A DNA stretch of 63,886 nucleotides, the filler included, from an uncultured bacterium (GTDB taxonomy: Bacteria; JAGOEH01): NCBI GenBank assembly GCA_964632485.1. It is 4 parts of 4 records of this genome, joined end to end, with 100 filler letters (N's around TTAATTAATTAA, not from the genome) between each part and the next. Parts side by side here need not be neighbours in the genome. Positions count along the whole stretch, not along the records: positions 33,298 to 61,763 come from CAZWDO010000034.1; 3 more parts are not named here. The stretch is one strand, 5' to 3'. Positions within the stretch are counted from its first letter, which is position 1. Each line of letters begins with the position of its first letter. The notes beneath the pieces are model-generated. The model worked only from the letters and a program-made list of their open reading frames with translations, searched no databases and was not told the DNA's origin. This document shows, piece by piece, positions 20,249-50,204 of this stretch. A program made the translations under genes and the position numbers.

Positions 20249-20348
20249 NNNNNNNNNNNNNNNNNNNNNNNNNNNNNNNNNNNNNNNNNNNNTTAATTAA
20301 TTAANNNNNNNNNNNNNNNNNNNNNNNNNNNNNNNNNNNNNNNNNNNN
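20249..20348. other. Assembly contig junction (N spacer with all-frame-stop linker)
   Basis: 44 N + TTAATTAATTAA + 44 N. Confidence 0.97.
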
Positions 20349-23003: not shown

Positions 23004-23246
23004 GGTTCCTCCCTTTATCAGGGTTTAAAGTTAAGAGTTTGCTCACTTACCGATGGTGCATTATTGAATTGTATTTTCTGTTCCATATCGAAACAAAATT
23101 GAATCCTTTCTCCTGTCCAGCAAGATAATCCATTGTTCGGCAGAGAATAATTTCGCTTGATATTGGCAAATTCCATTTTTCGCATTTTTGTGAACCCGTT
23201 AAATTTTTTTACCCGGGCGAAAAAATTTTACTCGCTTCATGGATGC

Positions 23247-25268
23247 CTACCTGATCAACTGCAGTTTGAGAATTCGGCTTTGCGAACCCACCCGCAACTG
23301 GCAGAAATAGATTCCGGTGGGCAGATGCGCGGCGTTGAAGCGGAGAGCATGATAGCCGGGGGCATAGGCGCTCAGATCGATGCGTTCGACAGTCCGTCCC
23401 ATCAGGTCGCGAATGATCAGTTCCTTCGGCGCGGCCGACCGGGTTTCTTCTCCCAGGTATAAATAGATGGTCGTGCCGGCGTTGAAGGGGTTCGGGTAGT
23501 TTTTAATCAGCGCGAAATGCCCGGGTCCTTTCGGCATATCGGGATTTTCGTCCGTTGCCAGCGGCGTTGTATAATCGGCCACATAGGCGGTATATTTGCA
23601 GCGGATGTTGTGTTTCAGGCTCAGTTCGATCAGGGCAGTTTTCAGCGAATCGGTTTCTCCCCAGACCGCGATGCGGCGCTCGAGGTCGTCGATTTTCTCC
23701 CTGGCCCAGAGCTTTTCCACAAACTGGTTCTGTTCGTTGCCGGTTTCCATGGTCACGGTCGCGCCATAGCCCTGCAGGGCGCCGTTGCTGTCATTGCCGG
23801 CGATCGAGAGGGAAGCGGAGCCGGTCTGGCGGTAGCGGCCCACAAGCAGCATGGAGGAACCGGCATAGAGGTCGGGTTTGATTTCCGGCAGCAGGTCATA
23901 GATTTCGGTTCCGCCGCCCATCTCGTAGAGAACCTGGCGTAGGAGGGGCTGATTGATGCGATCGAAAACCGAGCGGATGCCGGAATAGATTTCGTCGCTG
24001 TTGCGGAAGAAGGAGGCGAATCCGTGATTGTAGGCGCTGATGGCCTGGATTTTGTAATAGTCGGGATCGTCGCCGACGCCGACCGTAAAGATGGCGGCTT
24101 GGGCTTTATTGCTGTTTTGGATGGCGTTCAGGTTGAAATAGGCATAGCCGGAAGTGATCAGCAGGACCATATTGGAACGCAGGATATCCTTGAACTGGTT
24201 CAGCGCGAACTGCATGGCGCTTTCGAGGGAAACCCCGGAATAGCGGCTGACGCCGTCGAGATAGGCGGAGGCCTGAGTGATGTTGGCGCTGTCGGCGCAT
24301 TTCAGCGTGGATTGCCAGTACTGGTAATTGTAGTTGAAGAGAACGATATTGAAGGAATCCGCCGGGTTGAGCCGGGACAGGCATTCTTTGATGGCGGTGC
24401 GGCAGAGGTTGAAGTTTTCCTGGGAGACGCGAGTGGAATTTTCGAGAACGAACACCAGCCGTTTGGGCAGGCATTGCGCCGCGCCGTCGGCATTGTCCGG
24501 CGGGTCGATCGTCAGTGAGAAATAGCCGTCGTCGCCTTCGGGTTTCGTGCAGAAAAACGAGGTTTGCAGGGTGTCGTGGGGTACCTTATACGTCAGTTTC
24601 AGGTCGTTCGCCAGATAGGTTTTGGAAAGTTCCTGGCGGTAATGGAGAAAATTTCCGCAGGGCGCCGCGTTTTGGCAGGTCCCGTAGTGGTTGGTGGCGA
24701 AATCCCGGACTTCGGGTTGGTTGTAGACATAGAAATCAGCTTCGAAAAGGTCCAGCGGGTATTGGACGAAGGGGTCCGTTTTCATGGGGATGGAGAAGGT
24801 CAGGCCGTCCTGCTGGACAGTGGCGGTTTGGATATAGCGCAGTTCGACCTTTTGCAGGGTATGGGGCTGAATATCCTTCAGCATGACCTTGATGCCGTTC
24901 TTGCCGATATAGGCGTTGACCAGCGCGGCCATGCCGCCTTCGCCCGTGCCGGGATTGACGCTTTGTTCCTTGACCTGGAGTACGGCCTGATAGACCTGAT
25001 CCCCGTACCAATAGACGAACAATGTGGCCCGGGCGTCGAAAGGCAGGGGGTAGTTATAGACGGCATCGGTTTTCTGGTCCCACTCGTTGACGAATTCCTG
25101 GTAAACGCGGGTTTCCATGACGGGGCCGTGCGTCTCCACGGTCAGTCGGGTCACGCGGGGCCGCAGCAGTTCATACGGGTAATTGGCCGCGCCGGGCACC
25201 ATGACGCCGTCGGCATAAAGGGTAGCGGCCAGCAGCAGCCAACAGAGATATTTGTAAAGATGGGACAT
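23247..25268 (-). CDS. Secreted VIT + vWA paralog with degenerate MIDAS and T9SS-type C-terminal domain
   Basis: Colinear with 20901-23003; ENSTRVS and LITSG replace DxSxS and TDG; NYPNPFN tail; start set at the Met after AAGGAG. Confidence 0.85.
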   Translation of the reverse strand: MSHLYKYLCWLLLAATLYADGVMVPGAANYPYELLRPRVTRLTVETHGPVMETRVYQEFVNEWDQKTDAVYNYPLPFDARATLFVYWYGDQVYQAVLQVKEQSVNPGTGEGGMAALVNAYIGKNGIKVMLKDIQPHTLQKVELRYIQTATVQQDGLTFSIPMKTDPFVQYPLDLFEADFYVYNQPEVRDFATNHYGTCQNAAPCGNFLHYRQELSKTYLANDLKLTYKVPHDTLQTSFFCTKPEGDDGYFSLTIDPPDNADGAAQCLPKRLVFVLENSTRVSQENFNLCRTAIKECLSRLNPADSFNIVLFNYNYQYWQSTLKCADSANITQASAYLDGVSRYSGVSLESAMQFALNQFKDILRSNMVLLITSGYAYFNLNAIQNSNKAQAAIFTVGVGDDPDYYKIQAISAYNHGFASFFRNSDEIYSGIRSVFDRINQPLLRQVLYEMGGGTEIYDLLPEIKPDLYAGSSMLLVGRYRQTGSASLSIAGNDSNGALQGYGATVTMETGNEQNQFVEKLWAREKIDDLERRIAVWGETDSLKTALIELSLKHNIRCKYTAYVADYTTPLATDENPDMPKGPGHFALIKNYPNPFNAGTTIYLYLGEETRSAAPKELIIRDLMGRTVERIDLSAYAPGYHALRFNAAHLPTGIYFCQLRVGSQSRILKLQLIR

Positions 25269-25318
25269 GATCGACTCCTTGGATGGATTGGGGGATTGTC
25301 GGGTTTGCATGGGGGCCG

Positions 25319-27622
25319 CTACTTGATGAGCATGATTTTGCGGGTCAGCCGGCGTTGGGAATGGCTGCCGGATGCGATTTGATCAAGGGCGAGGAAATAT
25401 ACGCCGGTGGGTAGGGTGGAACCGTTGCGCTCCCTGGCGTCCCATTCGAGGGCCGCTCCTGTTTGCGCCGGGTTCCAGCGTTGGGAAAAGACTTGCCGTC
25501 CCTGGATGTCGTAAACCGCCAACTGGTATTCACTGGCGGCGGCCGAGGCGGGCAGCGTGATCCGCAGGCGGCTGTTGAAGGGATTGGGATAGCAAACCGC
25601 ATCGAAGCCATCCCCCGGAACCGAAGAGCATGTTCCGGGAACGGTATAGCTGGCGGTATCCTGGCCGCCCAGGCCGGCATAATGGATTTTCAGCGTTATT
25701 CGATTTCCGCCCGTCGCGAGTGAGGGCGAAGTATAGGCAATTTGCTGCATAGTTGGGCGCAGGGAGGCGATATCGAGCAGTATGTCCCGGAAATTGCCGA
25801 ATATTGAATAAAATTTTCCGCCCGTGGGTTCAATCACCGGATTGCACCAACTGATTTGCAGGCTGGGATCGGAAATGGAATGGACGACGATCCCTTTTTG
25901 GAGCATTAAATTGGTGATTTGTTCGATGGAATAATCCCGGAAATGGTATCCTTCGTCGGTGATCCAGATGATGCTTCGGTCGCTGCCTTCCCGCCAGCTC
26001 AACTGTGCCGCCGAATAGAGCCCGGCGAGTGAGTTCTCGTCGCCTCCCCAAAGTGAAATTCCGGCTAACGCAGTTCGAATGGCTTCGGTATCTGAAGTCA
26101 AATCCCAGGTATGATCGACATAGTCACTGAACGTCACCAGCCCGATCCTGAAATTATACTGGTTGTCGGATAAGGTTTGGGCGAATTCATTTAGATTGTT
26201 GCGTACCTGATTGATGTTGTCGCCCATGCTACCGCTGACATCGATGACGAAAACAACGTCGATCAGGGAACTGCCCGAATAAACCGTTTCCAGATCGATA
26301 TCCTGAATCCGTGTATCGTTTTCGTAAAGTGTCAGGTGATAGGGCTTGATATTTTTAATCCGGGTTTGATTCGTGTTTTGAAGCGCATCGATCACAAAGC
26401 GTACCGTCGGATACGAGGATACGTCGATGCTATCGATGGAAACGGTCAGTCCCGTATCGGCCACCGGCACCGCCGGGATGAAAACGGGCAGACTCAGGAA
26501 ATCGAGCAACGTGCCGCCCGAGTTGCACGCGATTGTAACCTGCGAATAGGAGTCCTCGTAGCGTTCTTCGCTTTCGAGGGTAATGGGAAGGATATCTGCG
26601 GCGTTAGCGCTCAGGCTGAACGTCAGGTTTGAATCCGGGGTCAGCAGGGGTTCTTCTGTCCGGATGGAGATCGTGCCGTTGAGCGCTTGCGCGCTAAGTC
26701 CGCACAATTGCAGGTAGGCGGTGATCTGGCCGGGATAGAGGAGATTGTTTTCGATGGAAAGAAACCGGGGGGATTGAGCGGAAAGGAAAAGCTTGTTCGC
26801 AAACTCGCCGTCCTGGAAAAACCATTCCCATTCGAGGCGTTCACTTTCCCCGGCACTTAGGGTGGCAACCTGGCTGGAGATGCGCAGGCAAAGATCATAG
26901 ATCATCCGCCCGGCGGGGGTTTGGTTCTGATAGATGGTGTTCCAGTTCGCGATCTGAATGGCGGCGGGGCTGTCCTGGCCAAAGCGGCAGGTCAGTCCCA
27001 TGCCGTGGGCCAGTCCGGCTTTTTGCAGAATTTCAAGTGAATCCGCTGCCGCTGCCGGTGCGATTTCTCGTTCGCCGCCGATCTCCCCGCCATCGATGCG
27101 GCAAAGCCCGTCGCCGCGCCAGCCCATGGCGGGATCGACCACCAGGCCGAGGCCGGTCTCGAGGGTGGAGGCGGACAGGTTGCCGATTTCCAGCGTCATT
27201 TTCCAGGTGCGGCCCTGGTCGTGGGATTCACAGGCGAAGATGAATTCCAACTGGTTTTCCAGCCGGTTGCGGTATTCGAGGCAATTGCCCGTTGTTGTGA
27301 CCTGGCCGCCGGTTGGGAACAGAGCTTCCGCTTTTTGCCAGCCGCCGTTGAGATAGATTTCGGGGTAGGAGGTTTTGGCGTAGGGATGGCCGAAGAGCAG
27401 CGGCAGGTTGTCGTCCACTGCCAGCGAGGACGCGCCCGATGTGGTCCCCATGGTGAAATAGCCGCCGTCGAGCATGCTGATTTCGGAAATGGCGGCGCTA
27501 AGCAGGGATTGGCCATCCGTTTTGAGGAGACCGTTGACATCGAGCGCATCTTTGACCTGTGGCCAGACGGTCAGGGGTAAGAGACAGATCAGGATTAAGA
27601 GTATTCTTTGCAGTGGTTTCAA
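25319..27622 (-). CDS. Secreted vWA domain protein with T9SS-type C-terminal domain
   Basis: Signal peptide; DVVFVIDVSGSM MIDAS, WITDE; CYPNPFN...LPTGVYF tail. Confidence 0.88.
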   Translation of the reverse strand: MKPLQRILLILICLLPLTVWPQVKDALDVNGLLKTDGQSLLSAAISEISMLDGGYFTMGTTSGASSLAVDDNLPLLFGHPYAKTSYPEIYLNGGWQKAEALFPTGGQVTTTGNCLEYRNRLENQLEFIFACESHDQGRTWKMTLEIGNLSASTLETGLGLVVDPAMGWRGDGLCRIDGGEIGGEREIAPAAAADSLEILQKAGLAHGMGLTCRFGQDSPAAIQIANWNTIYQNQTPAGRMIYDLCLRISSQVATLSAGESERLEWEWFFQDGEFANKLFLSAQSPRFLSIENNLLYPGQITAYLQLCGLSAQALNGTISIRTEEPLLTPDSNLTFSLSANAADILPITLESEERYEDSYSQVTIACNSGGTLLDFLSLPVFIPAVPVADTGLTVSIDSIDVSSYPTVRFVIDALQNTNQTRIKNIKPYHLTLYENDTRIQDIDLETVYSGSSLIDVVFVIDVSGSMGDNINQVRNNLNEFAQTLSDNQYNFRIGLVTFSDYVDHTWDLTSDTEAIRTALAGISLWGGDENSLAGLYSAAQLSWREGSDRSIIWITDEGYHFRDYSIEQITNLMLQKGIVVHSISDPSLQISWCNPVIEPTGGKFYSIFGNFRDILLDIASLRPTMQQIAYTSPSLATGGNRITLKIHYAGLGGQDTASYTVPGTCSSVPGDGFDAVCYPNPFNSRLRITLPASAAASEYQLAVYDIQGRQVFSQRWNPAQTGAALEWDARERNGSTLPTGVYFLALDQIASGSHSQRRLTRKIMLIK

Positions 27623-33197: not shown

Positions 33198-33297
33198 NNN
33201 NNNNNNNNNNNNNNNNNNNNNNNNNNNNNNNNNNNNNNNNNTTAATTAATTAANNNNNNNNNNNNNNNNNNNNNNNNNNNNNNNNNNNNNNNNNNNN
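33198..33297. other. Assembly contig junction
   Basis: N spacer with TTAATTAATTAA linker. Confidence 0.97.
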
Positions 33298-33857
33298 TCC
33301 AGGCCGAACTCTTTTGCATGATCACGCGCGTGCGATTCCAACCGCCCGGGCTCCCAGTAGAGCTTCCGCTCCTTCACTCGTCGCCCCAGTTCATCGGAAA
33401 AGTTTTTGATCTCCTGATCTGTCAGTCCCCCCTCTTTCGCGCGTTCGCCGGGCGTCCGGCTGTAGCCCTTGAAGCCGCCCGGCTCGAAATAGGCCACGGT
33501 GCGCGTGCGGCAGTTGAAGTGGTAGGGCGGCATGCATGCGCCGCTGTCGTTTAGGCTTTTCGTGCTCGTCAGCTTCGACAGCCGTTCGGCCCAGTCCTGC
33601 TGGGAGATCATCGGGTGAGCTTTTTTCATTCCTTCAAGCGAGTCGCCGGAGCCAATCGCGCGGTCAAGCTGATTGCGCATTTTGCTCACGGGGATAATCC
33701 GTCCGTGCATCCGTCGGCAAATCTCCGTAGTCTTAGAGTCCATTACGGCCACGACTTCGGCATACTCGATGGCCGCTTCTTCATATCCCGATACACTGCC
33801 GTACTGCGCCAGCTTGAACATCCAATGCTGAGCCGCGACGCGTATCTGCGTCTGCAT
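33298..33857 (-). CDS. MuF-domain/toxin fusion, cassette C (3' end cut by contig edge)
   Basis: DSKTTEICRRMHG and PPYHFNCRT MuF motifs; tip begins LYWEPGRLESHARDHAKEFG like cassette A. Confidence 0.8.
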
Positions 33858-33900
33858 CTCCTGGGCGAAAGCGCCGACAGCGGGCGACCATTTCGCTATA

Positions 33901-33927
33901 GTTTCAATCCTTGTTTTACTGGATTAG
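33901..33927 (-). repeat. Truncated CRISPR repeat (27 of 37 nt) between cassettes B and C
   Basis: GTTTCAATCCTTGTTTTACTGGATTAG identical to the array repeat, then diverges to CTGTCAGG. Confidence 0.95.
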
Positions 33928-33974
33928 CTGTCAGGAGCTCAAAAGTCGATCGTGTTTAAAAAACCGGCCATGAT

Positions 33975-34277
33975 TTATTCATGATCGAACAATCGCCAAT
34001 ACCAGCGCACCGGCTTCTTCTCCCGCTTCATGTCCTTTATCTCTTCCTCGCATAACTCTTTGATGTCGTAGTAACTCTTAAAATGTTCTGCTTTCAATCT
34101 GGCTTTGAATTTTTCCTTCAATGCGGCTTCAATTTCAACATCATAGCCGGCGTCAGCCCATGCTTCCAGTTCGAAAAACAGATTGATAGCTTCTGACAAA
34201 TCCATTTGACTGTCGAAATTTATATCAGCCCAATCAATTAAAACATCCAGTTTGTCAAAGAAATCACCTATTTTCAT
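33975..34277 (-). CDS. Putative immunity protein, cassette B
   Basis: 100-aa acidic ORF whose start overlaps the toxin stop; homologous to 35209-35517 (xxLxDW, YxVEI, PVRWYWRLFDHE). Confidence 0.7.
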   Translation of the reverse strand: MKIGDFFDKLDVLIDWADINFDSQMDLSEAINLFFELEAWADAGYDVEIEAALKEKFKARLKAEHFKSYYDIKELCEEEIKDMKREKKPVRWYWRLFDHE

Positions 34278-35091
34278 TAAAAAGCTCCTGAGTCTTAATT
34301 TTTTGCCATCTTTTTTCAGACATGCCATGGTGCTGGACGATCCGGAAGCCTTCCTCCACGATCGTCACGCGCTTGCCGTCCCAAAATTGATACTGCACCG
34401 CCTCCCGCACGATCCGTCCCGTTTCGTTTTTTTCCTGATAGACCGTCACAGCCCGCTCTTTCGCGTTGCGGATCGTCTCGATCTGGCTTTTGGCGTATTC
34501 CTCCCGGCTCAACCCCATCTCGCGGGAGCCGTGTTTCTCGAAATGATAATCGAACAGCTTTTCCGGGACGATCATCTTGTTTTCCTTCACCCGTCGTCCC
34601 AGTTCATCGGAAAAGTTTTTGATCTCCTGATCCGTCAGTCCCGGGTCTTTGGCGCGTTCGCCCTTAGTCCGGCTGTAGCCTTTGAAGCCTCCGCGGCACT
34701 GCCTGTCGGCAGACAGGTCGAAATAGGCCACGGTGCGCGTGCGGCAGTTGAAGTGGTAGGGCGGCATGCATGCGCCGCTGTCGTTTAGGCTTTTCGTGCT
34801 CGTCAGCTTCGACAGCCGTTCGGCCCAGTCCTGCTGGGAGATCATCGGGTGAGCTTTTTTCATTCCTTCAAGCGAGTCGCCGGAGCCAATCGCGCGGTCA
34901 AGCTGATTGCGCATTTTGCTCACGGGGATAATCCGTCCGTGCATCCGTCGGCAAATCTCCGTAGTCTTAGAGTCCATTACGGCCACGACTTCGGCATACT
35001 CGATGGCCGCTTCTTCATATCCCGATACACTGCCGTACTGCGCCAGCTTGAACATCCAATGCTGAGCCGCGACGCGTATCTGCGTCTGCAT
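34264..35091 (-). CDS. MuF-domain/toxin fusion, cassette B
   Basis: MuF (Phage_Mu_F/SPP1 gp7-like) Cys/His motifs; distinct C-terminal ~100 aa with HFEKHG..EMG..EEY, resembling RNase-type polymorphic toxin tips. Confidence 0.8.
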   Translation of the reverse strand: MQTQIRVAAQHWMFKLAQYGSVSGYEEAAIEYAEVVAVMDSKTTEICRRMHGRIIPVSKMRNQLDRAIGSGDSLEGMKKAHPMISQQDWAERLSKLTSTKSLNDSGACMPPYHFNCRTRTVAYFDLSADRQCRGGFKGYSRTKGERAKDPGLTDQEIKNFSDELGRRVKENKMIVPEKLFDYHFEKHGSREMGLSREEYAKSQIETIRNAKERAVTVYQEKNETGRIVREAVQYQFWDGKRVTIVEEGFRIVQHHGMSEKRWQKIKTQELFNENR

Positions 35092-35134
35092 CTCCTGGGC
35101 GAAAGCGCCGACAGCGGGCGACCATTTCGCTATA

Positions 35135-35161
35135 GTTTCAATCCTTGTTTTACTGGATTAG
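35135..35161 (-). repeat. Truncated CRISPR repeat (27 of 37 nt) between cassettes A and B
   Basis: Same 27-mer and same flanks as 33901-33927. Confidence 0.95.
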
Positions 35162-35208
35162 CTGTCAGGAGCTCAAAAGTCGATCGTGTTTAAAAAACCG
35201 GCCATGAT

Positions 35209-35517
35209 TTATTCATGATCGAATAGGCGCCAATACCAGCGCACCGGCTCGCCGCGTTGCCGCTTGCGTTTGATTTCTATCGCGAATCCGGCGCGAATTT
35301 CTTCATAACCAGAAATGTCTTTCGATTTAATGTCGCAGACTGCTTGTACCCAGCAATCATACAGACGCCTTAGTATTTCTACTTCGTATTTTTTGTTCTC
35401 ATTCGCCCATCGGTCCAAAAGCTCAAGCTTCACTCCCAGCTCAATATCCATCACTCCAACATAGATTCCATCTTCGCACCAATCCAGCAGCTCTCCAAAA
35501 TTGTCAAACTGGCTCAT
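35209..35517 (-). CDS. Putative immunity protein, cassette A
   Basis: 102-aa ORF starting 1 nt after the toxin stop, GAGG RBS; divergent homolog of the cassette B small ORF. Confidence 0.7.
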   Translation of the reverse strand: MSQFDNFGELLDWCEDGIYVGVMDIELGVKLELLDRWANENKKYEVEILRRLYDCWVQAVCDIKSKDISGYEEIRAGFAIEIKRKRQRGEPVRWYWRLFDHE

Positions 35518-35518
35518 A

Positions 35519-36310
35519 TTACCTCTTTTCTACAGTTTCCCCGAATGGTTCCAATTGTCGTTCTACATAGGATGTCTGATCTTTAAAGCCGGTCTTGAAA
35601 CGAAACCCTTCTCCGATCACAATCACAAACCCATCATCATTCCGCCAGGCGGTTTGTATACCGAATTTGCGACAATTTAACCAGAAAACATCGCCGCGGC
35701 CTTCCAGCAGCTCATAGAGTTTTTTTTCATAGCCTTCCGCGTCGCCGCGTTCGAGCCCGAACTCGCGCGCATGATCCCGCGCATGCGATTCCAGCCGCCC
35801 CGGCTCCCAGTAGAGCTTTCGTTCCTTCACCCGTCGCCCCAGTTCATCGGAAAAGTTTTTGATTTCCCTATCCGTCAGTCCCGGGTCTTTCGCCCGAGTC
35901 CCCGGCGTCCGGTTGTAGCCAGTGAATCCGCCCGGCTCGAAATAGGCCACGGTGCGCGTGCGGCAGTTGAAGTGATAGGGCGGCATGCAGGCCCCGCCGC
36001 GCACCAGGTCTTTAGTGCTTGTCAGCTTCGAGAGACGATCATTCCAGTCCTGTTGCGAGATCATCGGGTGGGCTTTTTTCATGCCTTTGAGCGAGTTTCC
36101 TGCCTTGAGCGCTCCGTCGAGCTGATTGCGCATATTACTGATGGGGAGTATCCGACCGTGCATGCGTCGGCAAATATCCGTGGTCTTGGAATCCATCACT
36201 GCCACCACTTCGGCATACTCGATCTGGGCGTCTTCATATCCAGAGACGCTGCCGTACTGGGCAAGCTTGAACATCCAATGCTGAGCCGCGACGCGTATCT
36301 GCGTCTGCAT
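35519..36310 (-). CDS. MuF-domain/toxin fusion, cassette A
   Basis: MuF motifs; tip LESHARDHAREFG...GY; ATG lies 43 nt from the last full CRISPR repeat. Confidence 0.8.
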   Translation of the reverse strand: MQTQIRVAAQHWMFKLAQYGSVSGYEDAQIEYAEVVAVMDSKTTDICRRMHGRILPISNMRNQLDGALKAGNSLKGMKKAHPMISQQDWNDRLSKLTSTKDLVRGGACMPPYHFNCRTRTVAYFEPGGFTGYNRTPGTRAKDPGLTDREIKNFSDELGRRVKERKLYWEPGRLESHARDHAREFGLERGDAEGYEKKLYELLEGRGDVFWLNCRKFGIQTAWRNDDGFVIVIGEGFRFKTGFKDQTSYVERQLEPFGETVEKR

Positions 36311-36353
36311 CTCCTGGGCGAAAGCGCCGACAGCGGGCGACCATTTCGCTATA

Positions 36354-39300
36354 GTTTCAATCCTTGTTTTACTGGATTAGGGAATAAAACGTTACCAAGC
36401 GTTAATGCGCAATTGGTTCAGCGTATGTTTCAATCCTTGTTTTACTGGATTAGGGAATAAAACAAATGATACTTCAGGCCATGACGCGCGGCGTCGATGT
36501 TTCAATCCTTGTTTTACTGGATTAGGGAATAAAACCCACAGTCTATTCAATATATACATTTTAGTTATGTCAAGTTTCAATCCTTGTTTTACTGGATTAG
36601 GGAATAAAACTGACTGGCGTATGAGGAACACCGGCCATTGATCGGTTTCAATCCTTGTTTTACTGGATTAGGGAATAAAACTAGTGGCTTAATGGCTTGG
36701 TAACTATTGTTATGGCGAGTTTCAATCCTTGTTTTACTGGATTAGGGAATAAAACTTATTTGTGTTTCGTTATTGAGCGTGAAAATTTGGTTTCAATCCT
36801 TGTTTTACTGGATTAGGGAATAAAACCCAGTCCCACAGTTTCGTGTTGAAAAAATTCTTTGCAGTTTCAATCCTTGTTTTACTGGATTAGGGAATAAAAC
36901 AACGAAAAAAACAAGACTTCCATTTTTACGCCCTTGTGTTTCAATCCTTGTTTTACTGGATTAGGGAATAAAACGTGATAGCGCCGGCCTTCTAACTGTT
37001 AGTTCTGAGTTTCAATCCTTGTTTTACTGGATTAGGGAATAAAACACACCCCGGAAGTTTTGACCCCGGCAAACGTTTGGGTGTTTCAATCCTTGTTTTA
37101 CTGGATTAGGGAATAAAACACCTGTTATTTTACGAGTTCAGGATGGCTGAACATGTGTTTCAATCCTTGTTTTACTGGATTAGGGAATAAAACCACTAAA
37201 TAAGCTACATAAGACAATAGACTTTTGTGTTTCAATCCTTGTTTTACTGGATTAGGGAATAAAACATAATGGATTTTGATTTTGTTGCGCCTCGGTTGAG
37301 TTTCAATCCTTGTTTTACTGGATTAGGGAATAAAACAACATCCGCAAGATGGTTTAGACTTGCCGCGGTTTCTTGTTTCAATCCTTGTTTTACTGGATTA
37401 GGGAATAAAACCCCAATTTCGATTATGTCGCCGATCTCGATTTCAGTTTGTTTCAATCCTTGTTTTACTGGATTAGGGAATAAAACTCCGCATTTTCATC
37501 CCGGAAAGATTCAGGGTAGGTGTTTCAATCCTTGTTTTACTGGATTAGGGAATAAAACAAAGAGAAAAAAAATGAAAAAACTTATGAGTACCTGTTTCAA
37601 TCCTTGTTTTACTGGATTAGGGAATAAAACCTCAACTAGCCCGGAATCCAACAATTGTTTAAGCTGAGTTTCAATCCTTGTTTTACTGGATTAGGGAATA
37701 AAACAAAATCAATACGCCGTTTTGAAGCTGGACGTTTAAGTTTCAATCCTTGTTTTACTGGATTAGGGAATAAAACCAGAAAGTCTTTTATTATGTTTTT
37801 GCATCTGCTATGAAGTTTCAATCCTTGTTTTACTGGATTAGGGAATAAAACTTCTGCTTACTGGGACCCCGGAACCGGGCAAGCAGCGTTTCAATCCTTG
37901 TTTTACTGGATTAGGGAATAAAACGGCAAGTAGGAAACAAGATAGGGACGGCCATCTTTCGGTTTCAATCCTTGTTTTACTGGATTAGGGAATAAAACCC
38001 AAGTCAACCAACTATAAAAAGTCGAGCGCTGGATTCCGTTTCAATCCTTGTTTTACTGGATTAGGGAATAAAACTTCAATTAGTTACGAAAAAAACTTGT
38101 CTGACATGATTGGTTTCAATCCTTGTTTTACTGGATTAGGGAATAAAACCTGTTCGCCTGGTTCTGGCTCTTCAAACCCAGTGAACATAATGTGTTTCAA
38201 TCCTTGTTTTACTGGATTAGGGAATAAAACAATTTTAACGGCTTAGCTTTTTCAACTTTAACATGGTTGTTTCAATCCTTGTTTTACTGGATTAGGGAAT
38301 AAAACTGACGCATAGCGGGTTGACATTAAAATCCCAGCTAAGTTTCAATCCTTGTTTTACTGGATTAGGGAATAAAACCAATGGCAAGAATGCCAGATGG
38401 ATTTGTTGATTTATCTGGTTTCAATCCTTGTTTTACTGGATTAGGGAATAAAACTGTTGGGCGGTTATCTCGACTACTATGGTTATTTCTAGTTTCAATC
38501 CTTGTTTNNNNNNNNNNTTAGGGAATAAAACACAGCCGGAACATCCCTCCAAACCGGCAGAAGCGGCTGTTTCAATCCTTGTTTTACTGGATTAGGGAAT
38601 AAAACCCGCTCACTGCGATACCGGTGAGCGAGTTAATCGCGGTTTCAATCCTTGTTTTACTGGATTAGGGAATAAAACATTGGCAGAAAGCCTACGGCTG
38701 GGATGACCTCGACGACGTTTCAATCCTTGTTTTACTGGATTAGGGAATAAAACTTCCTCGCACTTGTGGAATCTTATCACCATTCCGAGTTTCAATCCTT
38801 GTTTTACTGGATTAGGGAATAAAACAAGGAACGAATGATGGCGCGGATGATGACCACAGCTGTTTCAATCCTTGTTTTACTGGATTAGGGAATAAAACGC
38901 CACCGATATTGTAGAAACTACCATCGTAGATGCGAGTTTCAATCCTTGTTTTACTGGATTAGGGAATAAAACGTACCATGCGTCGTAGCCATCGTACGGC
39001 GTAGAAAACGTTTCAATCCTTGTTTTACTGGATTAGGGAATAAAACCCGGAGGCAACCGTGTCATCTGATGTTTCCACTCCATGTTTCAATCCTTGTTTT
39101 ACTGGATTAGGGAATAAAACCCGTTGACGCTATAGTGTCGCTGGCCCAGCCATAAATGGGTTTCAATCCTTGTTTTACTGGATTAGGGAATAAAACGAGA
39201 TGATCGGCTCCATGTCCACGGGATCATCCGCGAGGTTTCAATCCTTGTTTTACTGGATTAGGGAATAAAACCATGCCAGCCATCTGGCGCTAAGCCTCGT

Positions 39301-39488
39301 GGATCGGGTTTCAATCCTTGTTTTACTGGATTAGGGAATAAAACTACTCGCCGATCCCGCGACACTGGACGAACTCGCGGTTTCAATCCTTGTTTTACTG
39401 GATTAGGGAATAAAACGCATGTTGCCTCCTATTCCATAATTTCATAGACTTGTTTCAATCCTTGTTTTACTGGATTAGGGAATAAAAC
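36354..39488 (-). CRISPR. CRISPR array: 43 visible 37-bp repeats (GTTTTATTCCCTAATCCAGTAAAACAAGGATTGAAAC), 42 spacers of 34-44 nt
   Basis: Repeats counted directly; one repeat is interrupted by N gap 38508-38517; orientation from the 3' ATTGAAAC end and the AT-rich leader next to cas4. Confidence 0.99.
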
Positions 39489-39690
39489 TGAGATTTTTTG
39501 TACCTAATTGTTTTTCAACTGGTTCAATAATATTTTCTCCTGTTGAATTATAAATATTCAGGTTCCAATTCCAATTTTTTTCTTGACATTCTTTCTTGGT
39601 TGCGTAATTTTTTTCTGTATTAATCATACTCTCCACTAACTAATTAGCTACATTAAACGTTTAATTTTTCCTGAAATCGACAGGAAGATT
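39489..39690 (-). promoter_or_regulatory. CRISPR leader
   Basis: AT-rich non-coding stretch between the cas4 stop and the first repeat. Confidence 0.8.
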
Positions 39691-40287
39691 CTAAGAAATG
39701 CACAGGTTATGGAAACAGCAATCCGGGCAACTTTTACGATGCCGCGTTGCTTTTGGGAAATACCCTGCGCCAATTATTCGCTGCGCATCCCGTACTGATT
39801 CCAGAACCAACTGTTTATGTTCTTCCGCAATAGGATATTGCATCAACCGGTTATGATCTCTTACATATACTATATAACAGAAATCCACATTTGTCAAGTA
39901 GTTTTTTTCGATCAGCAACGAATACAGTACATTTTGATAAAACTGAGTTTGGAACCGGGTTTTATAAAAGGCGAATTTATAATCAAGAGAACACATCTTT
40001 CCTCCTTTAAAATAAAGTAGATCGTCAATAATACCGCTGACTCCCAATTCTGCATTCGAGAGATAAACATTCCGTTCCAGTTTTATCACCCCGATTTTTC
40101 GACGCAGATACACCGGTTGAAGCGCTTTCTTTTCATGGATATCGCGCCCTATCATTACTTTAATCCGTTTTTCCTCATGCTGTCGAAGTTTCAGACACTC
40201 CATAAAATAAATGAAGCGCGGACAATACCAGTATTCAATCATAGTGGATACCGGGATGAGTATCTTGTTTTCATTAAAGGAAATCAT
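39691..40287 (-). CDS. cas4: CRISPR-associated Cas4
   Basis: YCPR, GIIDD..LDYK RecB-like motif, C-terminal CxxCxxxxxC Fe-S cysteines. Confidence 0.95.
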   Translation of the reverse strand: MISFNENKILIPVSTMIEYWYCPRFIYFMECLKLRQHEEKRIKVMIGRDIHEKKALQPVYLRRKIGVIKLERNVYLSNAELGVSGIIDDLLYFKGGKMCSLDYKFAFYKTRFQTQFYQNVLYSLLIEKNYLTNVDFCYIVYVRDHNRLMQYPIAEEHKQLVLESVRDAQRIIGAGYFPKATRHRKSCPDCCFHNLCIS

Positions 40288-40302: not shown

Positions 40303-40605
40303 TTACAAAAAAAGTTCCCGTTTTCGGTTCGCTACTAGATCCTTGTCAAATCCTTGCCCAATCAGAGTTACTGCGTTGTAATCTTTGTCACACATGGGGA
40401 AAATATAAACGCTATCCACTTTTTCCTCAATCAGGTTCCGTGAAAAAAGGATCAACTCATCAAGACGATTGGATTCAAGCGCGCCGCAGAATACGGATTT
40501 CTGGATGCGCATCAATCCGAATCGTTGAATCTGTTTGGCAATTTTTTGACGTCGCCGGTCACCATTTGGTGAGCTTTCAATATCATATAGCACCCATGCG
40601 TTCAT
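40303..40605 (-). CDS. cas2: CRISPR-associated Cas2
   Basis: VLYDI, RIQKSVF, DSVYIFP; ATG overlaps the cas1 stop. Confidence 0.95.
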   Translation of the reverse strand: MNAWVLYDIESSPNGDRRRQKIAKQIQRFGLMRIQKSVFCGALESNRLDELILFSRNLIEEKVDSVYIFPMCDKDYNAVTLIGQGFDKDLVANRKRELFL

Positions 40606-41582
40606 TTTCCCTCCTCGATGAGTGAGTTGGCAAAACGATGGCAAAACGCCTGAATAGTCTGCCGTCGTTTCATGTTTTTACTACCGTAGTGAACAATTTT
40701 ATCCAAATATTCATTGAATGCGGTGAAAAGCTCTTTTTTACCCTCCTGATTGAGGCTGTAGCCCTTGGGTATTTCTCTCACCATGTGATTGGCAATTTTC
40801 TTTTGGCTGAATAGATGAAACACGCAGATATCGGCATAAATACGGAAATTTTCGATAATATCATATACCAGGGATGGCTTGTTGTAATTGTCCGTGTGAA
40901 TGAACCCGATATAGGGATCGAGGCCGGCGATGATACAAGCCCGTTCAACCATTGCATAGAGTATTCCATACGCATAATTGATAAAAGCGTTAAAGGGGTC
41001 TTTAGCGGGTTGGCGGGATCGACCCTCGAAATGATATCGCTCTGGGATACTCATGGCCAGAGCTTTGAAATATGAATTGGAAGCGCTGCCTTCCAATCCC
41101 TGGATCGTTCCTCGTGTATCATCAAGTGTTTTTTCTTTGATCTCGATCAGTTTTTCACGATTGATGACAATAGCATGAGCGAATCCGGAAAGAGTATCTG
41201 CCAGCGCGGGTCGATTTTTAGCCAAATCCTGAATAAAATTAATCTGATTGAGAAGCTTGCTTGCGATCCAGTCGAGCGCAATTGCCAAGCCTTGTTCTGT
41301 TTGATACAGTTCCAATTGTCGGCGGCGGATTGCGGCGATTGATCCGAAGCGTGCCAGCCAGAAACGACCGATCACATCGCCGTTGTCCTGGATCAGTATC
41401 AAGTCAATATTATTTTCCAGGCAGGTTTTAATGGCATCCGTGCTGATCGCCGCGTGAGTGGTTATAATCACTCGTTCGACACGGGATGGGGCGATTGTGG
41501 TTTTGTCCTCTCGGTTGCTGACCTGAAAAATCCCGTCATGCAAGGAAATATAGCTGCCCGGCGTTGTAATAATTAAATCCAT
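40602..41582 (-). CDS. cas1: CRISPR-associated Cas1
   Basis: GLEGSASNSYF, DPFNAFINYAYGILY, GLDPYIGFIH, SLVYDIIENFR. Confidence 0.97.
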   Translation of the reverse strand: MDLIITTPGSYISLHDGIFQVSNREDKTTIAPSRVERVIITTHAAISTDAIKTCLENNIDLILIQDNGDVIGRFWLARFGSIAAIRRRQLELYQTEQGLAIALDWIASKLLNQINFIQDLAKNRPALADTLSGFAHAIVINREKLIEIKEKTLDDTRGTIQGLEGSASNSYFKALAMSIPERYHFEGRSRQPAKDPFNAFINYAYGILYAMVERACIIAGLDPYIGFIHTDNYNKPSLVYDIIENFRIYADICVFHLFSQKKIANHMVREIPKGYSLNQEGKKELFTAFNEYLDKIVHYGSKNMKRRQTIQAFCHRFANSLIEEGK

Positions 41583-41593
41583 AAAAAAAATCC

Positions 41594-41622
41594 TTGACAA
41601 ATTATATTTTTAGCCGTATAGT
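41594..41622 (+). promoter_or_regulatory. sigma70 promoter of the interference operon
   Basis: TTGACA-N17-TATAGT. Confidence 0.65.
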
Positions 41623-41795: not shown

Positions 41796-43697
41796 ATGAT
41801 TGAGGCGCTTTATCAAATCGGGAAGATTCTGCCTGGGGATGGATTGTTAGCGCAATGGGTGGATGAAATTGATTGTAAACGATATCTCCATGTTCTTAAA
41901 ATAATGTTTAATTACGATAAAATCGAAAATATTCACTATGCAGGTATTGAATTAGAAAAAAACTCACCTGAGCGAAAAATGAAATATTTATATAAGCAGT
42001 CCAAGGGAAATATAGTCAATCCAACGCCTACTACTTTGGTTACAGAACTTAAAAAAACGCTTTGCAATAAAAAACGGTTTTTTCAAAGTTTTATTAAAAT
42101 TCATAAAAACCAGTTCTCCGAAACTTCAATTAAATTTCATCATTCTCTGCAAAAATGTGTGGAAGAAAATGAGGACTTAATTTTTCAAGAAATTTTAGAG
42201 GTCTGTAAAACTGATGGGCTCATTCAGGCCAAAGGCGACGACTGGGTATTTCGTGAGGGAGGGGTCATCTCCCTTGGATTCTGTCGAAATGGAGAGAGGG
42301 AGTATGTCGGAGATATTTCTCATTTTACGGATTATCTCCTTGATGCGGAAAGCATTTATCGATCCTATTACAAGTGTTATAATGTGGAAAGCCGTTCATC
42401 GGACAAGTTCTGCTATGTGTGCCGGAAACAGGTTCCCGAGGTGTGGGGCTTTGTCAATACTTTCAACTTTTATACGGTCGATAAACCGGGCATGGTGACC
42501 GGGGGATTTGATCAAAAACGGGCGTGGCGCAATTATCCGGTCTGTCCCCAATGTTCCGCGACGCTGCTGAAGGCGCGAAAGTATATCGACGCCCATCTGA
42601 GTCGCCGGTTTTGCGGATTCAATTATTATATCGTCCCGCAATTGATAGCGCCGGATGATGAATTGTTAACGTCAGTTTTAAATGATATAATTGAATCTAT
42701 ACCAAGTTTCTCAACGAGTGGAAAAGAAGCGATGCTGATTCAACAAAGCGAAGAAGAAGTATTGGAGGTTTTGGCGCGGGAATCAAATGCGGTGAATTTT
42801 CATTTTGTCTTTTACGAAACGCATCAAAGCGAATTTAAAATATTGTTGTATTTGCAGGATATCGCTCCATCACGATTGGCGCGGTTGTTGAACGTGAAAT
42901 CGTTAGTCGATAAAACTCATTATGCCGGTAATGTTTTCGGTCAATTTGAAGAAAAATTCAACAGCGCGGATTCTCCCCCTCAATTTAAGTTTTCATTTGG
43001 GTTGTTGAGGAATTTTTTTCCGAATAGCCGATTTGAAGGCGATTTTAATGCGCTTTTTCTGGAATTAGTCAATAACATTTTTATAGGGAAAAAAATTGAC
43101 GCCACTGTTTTTTTTCAGCGTTTCATGCAGCGAATCCGACAAGCTTTTCTCAATGGGTCCGGCATCGGTTATCAAATTTGTACTGTTCAAGCGTATAAAA
43201 TATTGTTGTATGTTTATGAGATCGACCAGTTAATTTTTATCCAGGGAGGAAAAATGGAGTCTGCGGTCCCGTTTGACGAATTTTTTGCAAGCCAGAAATT
43301 ACTGGATGATTCCGCTCAGCGGGCGGTTTTTCTATTGGGCGTTCTGGCGCAGAAGCTGTTGCGCATTCAGTATCAGCAAAGCCGGAGCGCTCCCTTTCGC
43401 GCCCGGTTGAATGGACTGAAAATCGATGCGCGCGTAGTAAGGCGCTTGCTGCCGGAACTTATCAATAAGCTTGAGGAATATAAGAAAAACTATTATCATG
43501 AACTCGAATCCGCGATCAGCCGCTATCTGCTCCATGCCCGTCTGGAACGTTTCAGCGTTACGGAATTGAGTTTCTATTTTACGTTGGGCATGTCGCTGTC
43601 CGGTGAATTTAAATTTGCCAAAGAAACACACGATATAAACGAAAATTCTCATCCATCAGTTCCTGAACAATTATCCCTGGAGGTACTCAATGACTGA
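41796..43697 (+). CDS. cas8b1: Type I-B large subunit Cas8b1 (Csh1/TM1802-like)
   Basis: MIEALYQIGK start, CxxC..FYTVDKPG..CxxC zinc motif, AVFLLGVL..FYFTLG C-terminal domain. Confidence 0.9.
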   Translation: MIEALYQIGKILPGDGLLAQWVDEIDCKRYLHVLKIMFNYDKIENIHYAGIELEKNSPERKMKYLYKQSKGNIVNPTPTTLVTELKKTLCNKKRFFQSFIKIHKNQFSETSIKFHHSLQKCVEENEDLIFQEILEVCKTDGLIQAKGDDWVFREGGVISLGFCRNGEREYVGDISHFTDYLLDAESIYRSYYKCYNVESRSSDKFCYVCRKQVPEVWGFVNTFNFYTVDKPGMVTGGFDQKRAWRNYPVCPQCSATLLKARKYIDAHLSRRFCGFNYYIVPQLIAPDDELLTSVLNDIIESIPSFSTSGKEAMLIQQSEEEVLEVLARESNAVNFHFVFYETHQSEFKILLYLQDIAPSRLARLLNVKSLVDKTHYAGNVFGQFEEKFNSADSPPQFKFSFGLLRNFFPNSRFEGDFNALFLELVNNIFIGKKIDATVFFQRFMQRIRQAFLNGSGIGYQICTVQAYKILLYVYEIDQLIFIQGGKMESAVPFDEFFASQKLLDDSAQRAVFLLGVLAQKLLRIQYQQSRSAPFRARLNGLKIDARVVRRLLPELINKLEEYKKNYYHELESAISRYLLHARLERFSVTELSFYFTLGMSLSGEFKFAKETHDINENSHPSVPEQLSLEVLND

Positions 43698-44646
43698 CCT
43701 GAATACTCGACATGAAATTCTGTTCATTTACGATATAACGGACGCCAATCCCAACGGCGATCCACTGGATGGCAATAAACCCCGCATCGATGAGGAAACG
43801 CGCATTAATATTGTTACGGATGTACGGCTGAAACGCACGGCGCGCGACTATCTTCATGAATATAAAGGGTATGATGGATTGGGTGAAAAAGATATTTTTA
43901 TCCGCGAAATAGCCATGGAATCCGGCAATCCGGAAGCGGGCATCCAGGATGGTAAAACCCGCGCCAAGGATTTTAAGGGCAAGGATGATATCCTGAAAAA
44001 GTGTATCGATGTGCGGCTTTTCGGAGGCGTGATCCCGCTTGAAGGGAAAAAGAGTAAAAAAAATAAAAGCGATGATGATGATAGCGTCGAATCAGGCGAG
44101 AAAAGTTATACCTTCACCGGTCCGGTACAGTTCAAAATGGGACGCTCCCTGCATCCGGTAGAAATGCTCTATATCAAAGGCACCGGCGCTTTTGCATCAA
44201 AACCTGGGAATACGCAGAAAACGTTTCGTGAAGAATATATTTTGCCCTATTCCTGTATCGCGTTTCACGGTATTGCCAATGAAAAGGCTGCCATAGCCAC
44301 TGGCCTGACCCGGGCCGATCTCGATCTGTTGATGGAGGCGCTGTGGATGGGCACTAAAAATCTGATCAGCCGCTCCAAATTCGGCCAGGCGCCTCGTTTC
44401 CTGCTGCGAGTGGAATATCAGGAATCGGGCTTTTTCCTGGGCGATCTGGATAAACTGATTTCGTTGTCTGGTGTTGAAAATCCGCTGGCTATCCGTTCCA
44501 CGGCTGACTACCGTTTCGATCTTTCCCAATTGATCACGATCCTCGATGCAAATCGGAATCGCATTAAAAATGTCCGGTATAAAAACGATGCTCTGCTGAA
44601 AATGTCGTCTTCCATTCCCGACTGGTGGCAAGAGTTCGGGTTTTAA
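43690..44646 (+). CDS. cas7: Type I-B Cas7 (Csh2)
   Basis: ANPNGDP..NKPRID, TDVRLKR, IDVRLFG, TGPVQF. Confidence 0.95.
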   Translation: MTDLNTRHEILFIYDITDANPNGDPLDGNKPRIDEETRINIVTDVRLKRTARDYLHEYKGYDGLGEKDIFIREIAMESGNPEAGIQDGKTRAKDFKGKDDILKKCIDVRLFGGVIPLEGKKSKKNKSDDDDSVESGEKSYTFTGPVQFKMGRSLHPVEMLYIKGTGAFASKPGNTQKTFREEYILPYSCIAFHGIANEKAAIATGLTRADLDLLMEALWMGTKNLISRSKFGQAPRFLLRVEYQESGFFLGDLDKLISLSGVENPLAIRSTADYRFDLSQLITILDANRNRIKNVRYKNDALLKMSSSIPDWWQEFGF

Positions 44647-44658
44647 AGGGGATTATCC

Positions 44659-45396
44659 ATGAAAATCGTCGTCGTCGATCTTTACGGAGATTACGGACAT
44701 TTCAAAGTACCCTATACCACTACATCGCCTCTGACATTTCCGGTTCCGCCGAAATCGGCATTGATGGGTATGATCGGCGCTGTGTTCGGGTATGATAAAA
44801 CGGAATATCTGCATCGCCTTGCACAACATGAATGGCGATGCGCGATTCAATTGCTGAAACCCGTCAAAAAAATGCATATCAGCGAAAATCTGCTTCATAC
44901 CAAAAATGTCAGGCATTTCGCGCGCATGGATCCACATAAAGCGCCCCATTCGCCCACACGGATCGAATTTCTGAAAGATGCCGCTTATCGGATATTTGTT
45001 CATTGCAGCGATCAGCATGAACTGGAACGTCTCAGCCATGCCCTTGAAACCCGAACCCATGTCTATACGCTTTCCCTGGGACTCTCTGAATGCTTGTTGA
45101 ATTATCAATGGAGAGGTATGGCTGACGGGGTTGAAGTTACCGGCGGGGGGCAATGGATTCCTCTGCATTCGATTCTTCCTTTGAACCGGATATCGTCCCG
45201 TGAGGATATCGCTTTATTCAATCCCACTTCGCGCTTTCAACGCGTCCATCTGCCCGTCGAACTTTCTCCCGATCGGATACTGCTTAGTTCGGAGTTTTTT
45301 CTGATCGAAACCAACGGTGGAGCGATCGAGGCGCGCAACCTGAACTATTATCAATTGCAACTGGGACAACAACCGTTGAATATCGTTTTGTTTTGA
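44659..45396 (+). CDS. cas5: Type I-B Cas5
   Basis: GDYGHFKVP..LTFPVPPKSALMGMIGAVFG; YTLSLG. Confidence 0.95.
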   Translation: MKIVVVDLYGDYGHFKVPYTTTSPLTFPVPPKSALMGMIGAVFGYDKTEYLHRLAQHEWRCAIQLLKPVKKMHISENLLHTKNVRHFARMDPHKAPHSPTRIEFLKDAAYRIFVHCSDQHELERLSHALETRTHVYTLSLGLSECLLNYQWRGMADGVEVTGGGQWIPLHSILPLNRISSREDIALFNPTSRFQRVHLPVELSPDRILLSSEFFLIETNGGAIEARNLNYYQLQLGQQPLNIVLF

Positions 45397-45406
45397 CGGT
45401 TATAAC

Positions 45407-47764: not shown

Positions 47765-48439
47765 TTACATGATGCGGCGGATCCAACCGTACCCGCGACT
47801 GGGGCTTTTGCCTAATCCCACATAATCGGGCAGTTCCATGTTGATCATAAATTGACCCTGAAATCCCAACACACTTTCTCCCTTTAAATTGACCGGAATA
47901 TGTCTCACGCTGAGTTTTATCACAAGCCGATCTGGAATGGTATATTCGACAAATTTGCAAAAGGAAATAATATTGTTGATTAAGATCGCCTTGAGCTTTT
48001 CTTCCCGTTCCTGTTGAGATTTCATCTGCTGAAATAAATTGAAATTATCCTGGTTGAGCGCGATCCAGGGAGAACCGAATTCATAGAGATTCGTTTCAGA
48101 CGTCATTCCCAAGCGTATGGACTGAATATCCAAAGAACGATTGTAAAAGTAGATTTGTTTTTTTTCCAACCAGGCCGTCTCGGTTTGCAGAAATAGCAAA
48201 CGAAAAATATCGACTGCTTTATCTCCAAAGGTGATAATAGAAAATTTTCCATCAATGATCTTGAATTGAATGGCTGCATAGCGATAGAGTGTTTTTCCCG
48301 TTTCCGGATCATGGTTGTGGAGCAGATCAAATTGATGCAATTCATTGCTGAAAAAACCGCGGATTTTATGAATTTCGGAGGATTTGATTTTGGCTTCGGG
48401 GAATTGAAGCCATACCCGTTTGATCTGCTTGAACGCCAT
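47765..48439 (-). CDS. cas6: Cas6 (Cas6b-like) crRNA-processing endoribonuclease
   Basis: IRGFF..LLHNH..YRYAAIQFK, PWIALNQ, C-terminal G-loop GLGKSPSRGYG. Confidence 0.9.
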   Translation of the reverse strand: MAFKQIKRVWLQFPEAKIKSSEIHKIRGFFSNELHQFDLLHNHDPETGKTLYRYAAIQFKIIDGKFSIITFGDKAVDIFRLLFLQTETAWLEKKQIYFYNRSLDIQSIRLGMTSETNLYEFGSPWIALNQDNFNLFQQMKSQQEREEKLKAILINNIISFCKFVEYTIPDRLVIKLSVRHIPVNLKGESVLGFQGQFMINMELPDYVGLGKSPSRGYGWIRRIM

Positions 48440-49990: not shown

Positions 49991-50204
49991 ATTGGTAATA
50001 TACGCAATCAAAGGGAAATTGCAAGCAAAATATTTAGAGGGGTCGCATCTCGCAAATCGCTCACTACTTCCATTCCGGGCTTCTTTTCAGTCATGCCGAA
50101 CGCCGATCCGGCATCTATTCTTTTATCCATGGTTTTCGGGCGCGAGCCATAGGGGCAGACAAGCCCGGAAGGATATGAAGGGAATTGCGTTATTAATCAA
50201 GGCG

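Follow-up and report, generated by a model that had tools for sequence, protein, structure and literature searches.

The window analysed here is a stretch of 63,886 nt from an uncultured bacterium (GTDB lineage JAGOEH01; assembly GCA_964632485.1). It consists of separate contigs chained by N44-TTAATTAATTAA-N44 linkers, and adjacency across linkers or gaps is meaningless. The locus of interest occupies the contig at 33298-61763 (28,466 nt). A complete CRISPR-Cas system of type I-B is encoded there, and its CRISPR array is followed, directly after the last full repeat, by tandem cassettes of MuF toxin gene fragments and putative immunity genes. Truncated copies of the array repeat, hereafter termed remnants, stand between these cassettes. 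The array and the cassettes are organized as follows.

39489-39690, minus strand: AT-rich leader with promoter-like sites, including TTGGAA-16-TATAAT at 39574-39547
36354-39488, minus strand: CRISPR array of 43 repeats of 37 nt with spacers of 34-44 nt, leader on the high-coordinate side (Rfam CRISPR-DR7)
36354-36390, minus strand: last full repeat, a perfect copy, with MuF coding sequence directly after it
35519-36352, minus strand: unit 1, MuF fragment with C-terminal domain type 1; frame open from the repeat boundary, first ATG at 36310
35209-35517, minus strand: unit 1, small gene of 102 aa, putative immunity gene; AAGAGG 4 nt before the ATG
35162-35208, minus strand: unit 1, tail of 47 nt, identical to the unit 2 tail, ending in CTGACAG at the remnant
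35135-35161, minus strand: remnant 1, holding repeat positions 11-37 and separating the unit 1 tail from unit 2
34264-35133, minus strand: unit 2, MuF fragment with C-terminal domain type 2, 5'-truncated
33975-34277, minus strand: unit 2, small gene of 100 aa, putative immunity gene; ATG at 34277, CAGGAG 7 nt upstream
33928-33974, minus strand: unit 2, tail of 47 nt
33901-33927, minus strand: remnant 2, holding repeat positions 11-37 and separating the unit 2 tail from unit 3
33298-33899, minus strand: unit 3, partial, with a type-1-like C-terminal domain, ending at the contig edge

Repeats within the array are identical and its spacers unique, the handle lies at the repeat 3' end, and Rfam CRISPR-DR7 (RF01320) is recognized on the minus strand. 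The 27-nt sequence of the remnants occurs 44 times in the window against none expected from 100 shuffles, as 42 full repeats and the two remnants, with all matches confined to 33901-39478; one of the 43 array repeats is interrupted by the 10-N gap at 38508-38517. In each remnant the first 10 nt of the repeat, GTTTTATTCC, are gone and ...CTCCTGACAG stands in their place. Both keep the AATCC/GGATT pairing and the ATTGAAAC end with zero mismatch to the array repeat. A first-pass annotation of this DNA had described the remnants as minus-strand copies that lack only the 5' 10 nt and otherwise carry no mismatch, which the 27-mer search and the junction alignment bear out. Retention of the stem and the 3' handle also holds, both in the sequence and in the CRISPR-DR7 scores (33.3 bits for remnants vs 36.4 bits for full repeats; gathering score 37), and the consensus structure of this family is the AATCC/GGATT hairpin.

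The three tandem units are spaced 1234 and 1219 nt from start to start, and they have a common MuF start nucleotide and, where visible, a common tail end. Behind the common MuF part lie three differing C-terminal domains. The Pfam family PF04233 (Phage_Mu_F) covers profile positions 48-111 of 112 only, with 27.5-29.8 bits around a cut-off of 29.6. Among 684 MuF relatives found at E <=0.001 in a library of 1.84 billion proteins, full-length members measure 440-510 aa (P0006, 444; P0008, 472; P0003, 511; P0004, 505 aa). These carry 176-195 extra N-terminal residues, and the window frames align to them from about residue 177-190 onward. The unit 1 frame is 64% identical to residues 177-444 of P0006, and the C-terminal domain of P0008 is of the same kind as that of unit 2. 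The first ATG of the toxin open reading frames (ORFs) corresponds to a Met within the conserved AQEMQT motif inside MuF, with AGGAG at spacing 0. GGAGG-like sites 4-7 nt upstream precede both small genes, cas8b, cas7 and a TonB receptor gene.

Neither the C-terminal domains nor the small genes match any Pfam family. For the unit 1 frame (AlphaFold model, pLDDT 83), six of the eight best fold matches in the PDB are colicin D tRNase or CdiA-CT structures. TM-scores on the target are 0.50-0.65, or 0.18-0.19 for two long 5znm colicin D chains, and the Foldseek E-values are weak (0.02-0.2). Each unit is thus probably a 5'-truncated MuF polymorphic-toxin gene followed by a probable immunity gene and a 47-nt tail. 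ORF and family scans found no full-length MuF gene elsewhere in the window; upstream of the units lies the CRISPR array.

The two complete small proteins, otherwise very different, end alike in PVRWYWRLFDHE (33975-34031 and 35209-35265, minus strand). Two further members of the 90%-identity cluster of the unit 2 small protein, P0157 and P0158, lie on contigs of 55.7 kb and 23 kb elsewhere, and their C-terminal end reads VRWYWRLFE. This conserved protein end and the tail together have the appearance of a right-hand recombination site for the cassettes.

Comparison of the units separates a perfectly conserved junction from diverged interiors. The remnant and the next 89 nt show no difference among all three units. 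From nt 90 onward, 62 of 321 nt (19%; 81% identity) distinguish unit 1 from unit 2, and at that divergence the probability of 117 unchanged nt is about 1e-11. The abrupt end of identity past the remnant marks a recombination boundary. Because the adjoining 89 nt of coding DNA are equally perfect, the perfect conservation of the remnant is no evidence for selection on it. Where the MuF parts of units 1 and 2 have diverged, dS is 0.81 and dN/dS is 0.14; these alleles therefore parted long ago in functional form at other sites and did not decay in place. Divergence between these two units is far greater in the C-terminal domains and small genes than in the MuF part, and the last ~85 nt of both units are nearly identical. 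Tail, remnant and first 90 nt together form an identical junction of ~200 nt. Across the shared MuF part, unit 3 is the same as unit 2 (33484-33783 = 34718-35017, 300 nt; codons 1-137 without difference); its 3' part instead resembles unit 1, with 83% DNA identity, and has 71 of 73 residues in common with P0006. As judged from these comparisons of sequence, the units are a mosaic produced by recombination.

The junction recurs in other data. Sequencing run X1 contains 74% of the words sampled from the stretch and is probably the source sample. Runs X2 and X3, which derive from one sample of another year and, unlike X1, have no study on record, contain parts of it at 90-99% identity, including the tail and remnant. 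After the remnant, X1 and X2 continue with one common non-MuF sequence and X3 with a different one. Because other DNA follows the remnant in all three runs, the remnant bounds the cassette on the far side too. Its position before non-cassette DNA makes a simple tandem duplication insufficient and is expected if the remnant is the rest of the next repeat. In the X1/X2 copy, the match ends 2 nt short of the remnant end (30-nt consensus), a hint that this copy is a degenerate terminal repeat. In addition, a 275-aa ORF differing from the unit 2 ORF by one residue occurs in another assembly. No RNA runs are among the sequencing runs listed for the stretch.

Searches for relatives covered a genome, a viral (IMG/VR) and a metagenome contig collection. 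The exact 27-mer has no match in any of the three, and no close relative of the cassettes or of MuF was found in them. Cassette DNA has no match in 50,697 phage records, and the small (immunity) protein has no relative in IMG/VR. More distant MuF relatives (<=45% identity) define 240 loci in the three collections. None of the 240 carries the 27-mer at <=5 substitutions, and none has two tandem MuF cores. A k-mer screen flagged four of them (L069, L149, L212 and L226), among which L069 and L226 are plain tandem repeats. In L212, from a Sulfurovum metagenome-assembled genome, a 25-repeat CRISPR array lies 3.7 kb upstream of the MuF-match gene with an 884-aa ORF between them (2671-4322, 7953-8660); this proximity is probably a chance neighbourhood.

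The anatomy of the units, their truncation, the identity pattern and the junction found in other assemblies favour one reading, to which we assign a probability of roughly 0.6. The remnants would then not be evolved signals but recombination joints of an orphan toxin/immunity cassette array that was captured and amplified in the end of the CRISPR array. Phage DNA comprising the 3' two-thirds of a MuF toxin gene, an immunity gene and 47 nt beyond would have been joined to the type I-B array end. The insert may have been placed between a full repeat and the next repeat, with the latter losing its first 10 nt in the process. The unit could then have been multiplied by unequal crossing-over of the 27-nt remnant with the full repeat, the ~200-nt junction later acting in the same role. 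Such crossing-over would give the observed series of full repeat, unit, remnant, unit and remnant. Recombination with diverged phage alleles would have exchanged the interiors of the units. The likely payload would be the immunity genes, which have their own ribosome-binding sites and are probably reached by transcripts running on from the array. The cell probably does not make the truncated toxin fragments, or does not deliver them. Any Cas6b cutting at the remnants would be a by-product of the carried-along repeat core.

Read-through transcription from the array into the cassettes is plausible on the basis of predicted signals. No terminator-like site was found in the tails or between the array and the cassettes, and minus-strand promoter-like sites upstream of the cassettes occur in the leader and array only. 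The promoter scan, which covered sigma-70-type sites and gave counts not above shuffled controls, placed none before the toxin fragments.

Orphan toxin/immunity cassette arrays are known from polymorphic toxin systems as cdiA-CT/cdiI and rhs-CT arrays (PMC3482391). The cassettes resemble these arrays in their tandem 5'-truncated toxins, a conserved stretch before the variable C-terminal domain, a putative immunity gene of their own and mosaic structure. They differ in that a CRISPR array, rather than a full-length toxin gene, lies upstream in the window, and in that a repeat remnant bounds each unit. The MuF C-terminal half, the variable, putatively RNase-like domain and the small downstream gene resemble those of phage MuF polymorphic toxins (PMC5576092), whereas about 176 N-terminal residues and the start codon are missing and there is no prophage head-gene context. 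No window unit has a complete N-terminal MuF domain. A word search of the paper that defined these toxins gave no instance of 'orphan' or 'truncated' (PMC5576092).

Several points weigh against the capture and amplification of an orphan cassette array. Immunity is assigned to the small genes by gene order, and they match no family. Both remnants are cut at the identical repeat position and the left junction falls exactly at the repeat/spacer boundary, which could be the sign of a site-specific process. Moreover, the remnants retain exactly the repeat core that is conserved in the family, and a function is possible. The sequence past the last unit is seen only as 30-nt loose ends, and these 30-mers match nothing in the window or IMG/VR. 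A second genome with the same layout was not found in the contig collections or the 240 loci. Finally, how many units one genome carries, and in what order, is not certain: the assembly is a draft of short-read style, its array has a gap and the contig breaks in unit 3.

Of the alternatives, the one that survives best is still unlikely. It takes the first ~36 nt after the repeat and the remnants as a former anti-MuF spacer. Recombination between spacer and protospacer would have captured the phage DNA, and the guide would still be active. A MuF-targeting CRISPR RNA (crRNA) would be produced from the repeat and remnants, now in three gene copies, and the remnant at the position of the protospacer adjacent motif (PAM) would spare the chromosomal copies. 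The start of MuF coding sequence exactly at the repeat/spacer boundary agrees with this proposal, and spacer lengths of 34-39 nt would fit. In Haloferax, type I-B crRNAs that lack a 3' handle show activity (PMC6546412, PMC4326828), and repeats borne by mobile genetic elements (MGEs) have been suggested to enable viral integration into arrays (PMC10651486). However, no phage bearing the protospacer emerged from the 50,697 phage records or, as a close MuF relative, from the three contig collections, and a PAM is not visible. The proposal also requires Cas6b to cleave the remnant, and homology to P0006 becomes detectable only from frame residue 8. As for the spacers of the array itself, 40 of the 41 were compared with the rest of the window and the 240 MuF loci (the one holding the N gap was left out), with only chance-level matches of 15-19 nt.

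The fate of the remnants in RNA bears on this proposal and on the next, and it would depend on the Cas machinery encoded beside the array.

47765-48439, minus strand: cas6b (Pfam Cas6b_N and Cas6b_C; PDB 4z7k/4z7l)
41796-47761, plus strand: cas8b, cas7, cas5 and cas3 (Pfam)
40602-41600, minus strand: cas1 (Pfam)
40303-40644, minus strand: cas2 (Pfam)
39691-40287, minus strand: cas4 (Pfam)

Pfam matches define a complete type I-B gene set, with Cas_TM1802 (cas8b) at E 1.7e-132 in addition to Cas7, Cas5, Cas3 HD/helicase, Cas6b_N/C, Cas1, Cas2 and Cas4. The gene at 47765-48439, previously annotated as Cas6, is more precisely a Cas6b, a clear homologue of the solved proteins 4z7k/4z7l (E 5.9e-36). 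Relatives of Cas8b were found at 33-39% identity only, in eight of the 86 genomes of the phylum of G001 (titled Calditrichaceae), and none in five further genome sets searched. Adjoining cas6b, a 516-aa protein (48461-50011, minus strand) has predicted AAA-ATPase (PF09820) and PD-(D/E)XK nuclease (PF08011) domains and may be a further defence gene.

A second alternative holds that Cas6b cuts read-through precursor crRNA (pre-crRNA) 8 nt from the end of the last repeat and of the remnants, so that every cassette yields its own RNA headed by a 5' ATTGAAAC handle, and that this processing, or Cascade bound to the handle, controls toxin/immunity expression. In a related form, the array would be a capture-and-expression site that phage DNA enters through recombination at a spacer or repeat, with cassettes carried in the pre-crRNA and Cas6b cuts releasing immunity mRNAs together with a crRNA-like anti-MuF guide; adaptive immunity and toxin immunity would then be joined in one transcript. 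Both forms are quite unlikely, even though cleavage as such is conceivable. Since the core conserved in the repeat family persists in the remnants, cleavage of read-through RNA by Cas6b is possible. Arrays with related repeats occur in seven other genomes of the class of G002 (pattern search with <=3 mismatches in 25 nt, all mismatches falling in the first 10 positions; genome G456 left out as unpublished). There, the last 15 nt of the repeat are invariant and the first 12 nt vary between genomes. Both remnants contain the cleavage-proximal sequence with the 8-nt tag, AACAAGGATTGAAAC, which does not vary among the related arrays listed. In contrast, the 10 nt lost from the remnants include the GTTyTT start common to these repeats.

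The hairpin of the 27-mer is weak (-4.2 kcal/mol), and the minimum-energy fold of the full repeat uses another pairing, end to end. Bases 1-3 of the 8-nt handle take part in three of the five stem pairs, which places a cut 8 nt from the end within the stem, not at its base. In several repeats of the related arrays, the two outer pairs of the hairpin are broken without compensation. The M. maripaludis enzyme reportedly binds an AAYAA motif adjacent to the cut site; a literature search found no paper on AAYAA with Cas6. AACAA occurs at repeat positions 23-27 and survives in the remnant.

Evidence from characterized systems points both ways. In M. maripaludis type I-B, Cas6b acts on a 37-nt repeat and leaves the tag AUUGAAAC, and a single repeat suffices for cleavage in vitro (PMC3479195). 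The present system shares a homologous Cas6b, the repeat length and the predicted 8-nt tag AUUGAAAC, whereas the 5' two-thirds of the repeat differ. The remnants, with positions 11-37 only, also lack the complete 37-nt repeat of the M. maripaludis substrate. The repeat's 5' segment serves as the primary site of Cas6 binding, or cannot be dispensed with, in P. furiosus, H. hispanica type I-B and T. thermophilus (PMC9458426, PMC12102369). The proposal that the remnants are Cas6 substrates therefore stands in part: the conserved core and tag speak for it, while the weak hairpin and the loss of a segment that matters in three systems speak against it. Efficient cleavage by Cas6b is accordingly a doubtful prediction, with failure as the likelier outcome.

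Control of expression through such cleavage fares worse. The lack of a terminator-like site in the tails and of a minus-strand promoter-like site before the cassettes agrees with a read-through transcript. The first-pass annotation had proposed that toxin expression could come under Cas6 and Cascade control, but this step is not supported: the toxin ORFs are 5'-truncated, with an internal Met as their first ATG and no usable start. The identity running ~90 nt past the remnant before it stops argues for recombination, not for selection on a guide of ~35 nt, and the remnant also stands before non-cassette DNA. A PAM-flanked target for repression by Cascade is lacking as well.

A reuse of repeats like that in CreTA/CreR, cited in the first-pass annotation, finds no counterpart here. 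As in CreTA and CreP (PMC9458426, PMC8501985), repeat-derived elements lie outside the regular order beside toxin genes of a type I system. CreA repeats are degenerate, usually paired and located in cas intergenic regions, and beside a PAM their pseudo-spacer has a partial match to the toxin promoter (PMC9458426, 10.1101/2024.01.05.574328). In contrast, the remnants are truncated but perfect, being 100% identical over 27 nt; they are single elements at the array end and have no promoter target. No pseudo-spacer matching a toxin promoter next to a PAM is present: the sequence after each remnant has no match other than the three unit starts, and repeat sequence flanks each of these.

Repeat-like elements were also observed at two other loci. 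In L260 (G212:C3, ~9845-9940), from the class of G002, two copies of the conserved repeat 3' part lie 67 nt apart, and tblastn found no relative of the window Cas proteins in 16 kb. This pair may be a one-spacer mini-array of the kind discussed for regulatory crRNA-like RNAs. In L259 (G260:C1, ~9997-10138), three repeat-like elements occur at 67-74 nt spacing with mutually similar 'spacers'. Two of the three end in GATAA, not GAAAC, and no relative of the window Cas proteins lies within 11.8 kb. These elements could be a tandem repeat or a decayed mini-array.

A third and highly unlikely possibility is that a phage-borne solitary repeat unit (SRU), a candidate Racr, located downstream of a toxin-immunity module, recombined with a host repeat and brought in the tail and the 27-nt element. 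The non-MuF DNA that follows tail and remnant in other contigs could be phage. SRUs occur in viruses of hosts with a matching CRISPR subtype, and 27 of 37 nt (73%) lies within the 50-90% coverage that SRUFinder treats as a partial match (PMC10651486). Like SRUs and Racrs (PMC10651486), the remnants are lone repeat-like elements on DNA of phage origin and keep the Cas-binding repeat part. The 10 nt before the remnant match the Rfam consensus at 6/12, the same as the array's own 5' end, but this is near chance. Unlike SRUs, which are MGE-borne and lie away from arrays and cas genes, the remnants sit on a chromosomal contig that also carries a 43-repeat array with cas genes, at distances of 1.2 and 2.4 kb from that array. 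IMG/VR yielded no viral copy: the 27-mer has no exact match there and the immunity protein no relative. There is also no promoter-like site before the element, and its 100% identity to the host repeat is expected for a host origin.

The least probable of the alternatives weighed here is an assembly artefact, in which strain variants of one cassette were chained by the assembler and no genome carries tandem units. The following joins and gaps were identified in the window.

20249-20348, 33198-33297 and 61764-61863, no strand: artificial contig linkers; DNA to the left of the linker at 33198-33297 belongs to another contig
18740-18749 and 38508-38517: 10-N scaffold gaps, the second inside the CRISPR array

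The gap in the array, the contig break inside unit 3 and more than 400 nt of identity between units 2 and 3, beyond the span of short reads, are all compatible with chaining. Nevertheless, the tail-to-remnant junction must occur in real DNA to be assembled, and it is also present in contigs of runs from another sample and year. The near-identical 275-aa counterpart of the unit 2 ORF in another assembly likewise argues against an artefact. The same layout would also arise if Cas1-Cas2 integrated a 1.2-kb 'spacer' and duplicated 27 nt of target; this is rejected on prespacer length, since the Cas1-Cas2 integrase measures prespacers of spacer length.

On another contig of the window, three adjacent large ORFs lie on the minus strand, within 20901-25310 and at 25319-27622. 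The ORFs at 20901-23003 and 23247-25310 match TIGR03788 ('marine proteobacterial sortase target') well under its cut-off.

Capture and amplification of an orphan cassette array thus remains the preferred explanation for the remnants, and its novelty is one of place and boundaries: kilobase-sized phage cassettes between CRISPR repeats. A narrow search of open-access papers turned up no report of toxin-immunity cassettes within an array, nor of MuF orphan cassettes. Should the layout hold in one genome, a CRISPR array is able to acquire and multiply kilobase-sized phage DNA between its repeats, and can serve as a store of orphan genes for immunity to phage-borne MuF toxins. The locus also provides a natural test of the repeat length that type I-B Cas6b needs, with 37-nt and 27-nt versions in one transcript.

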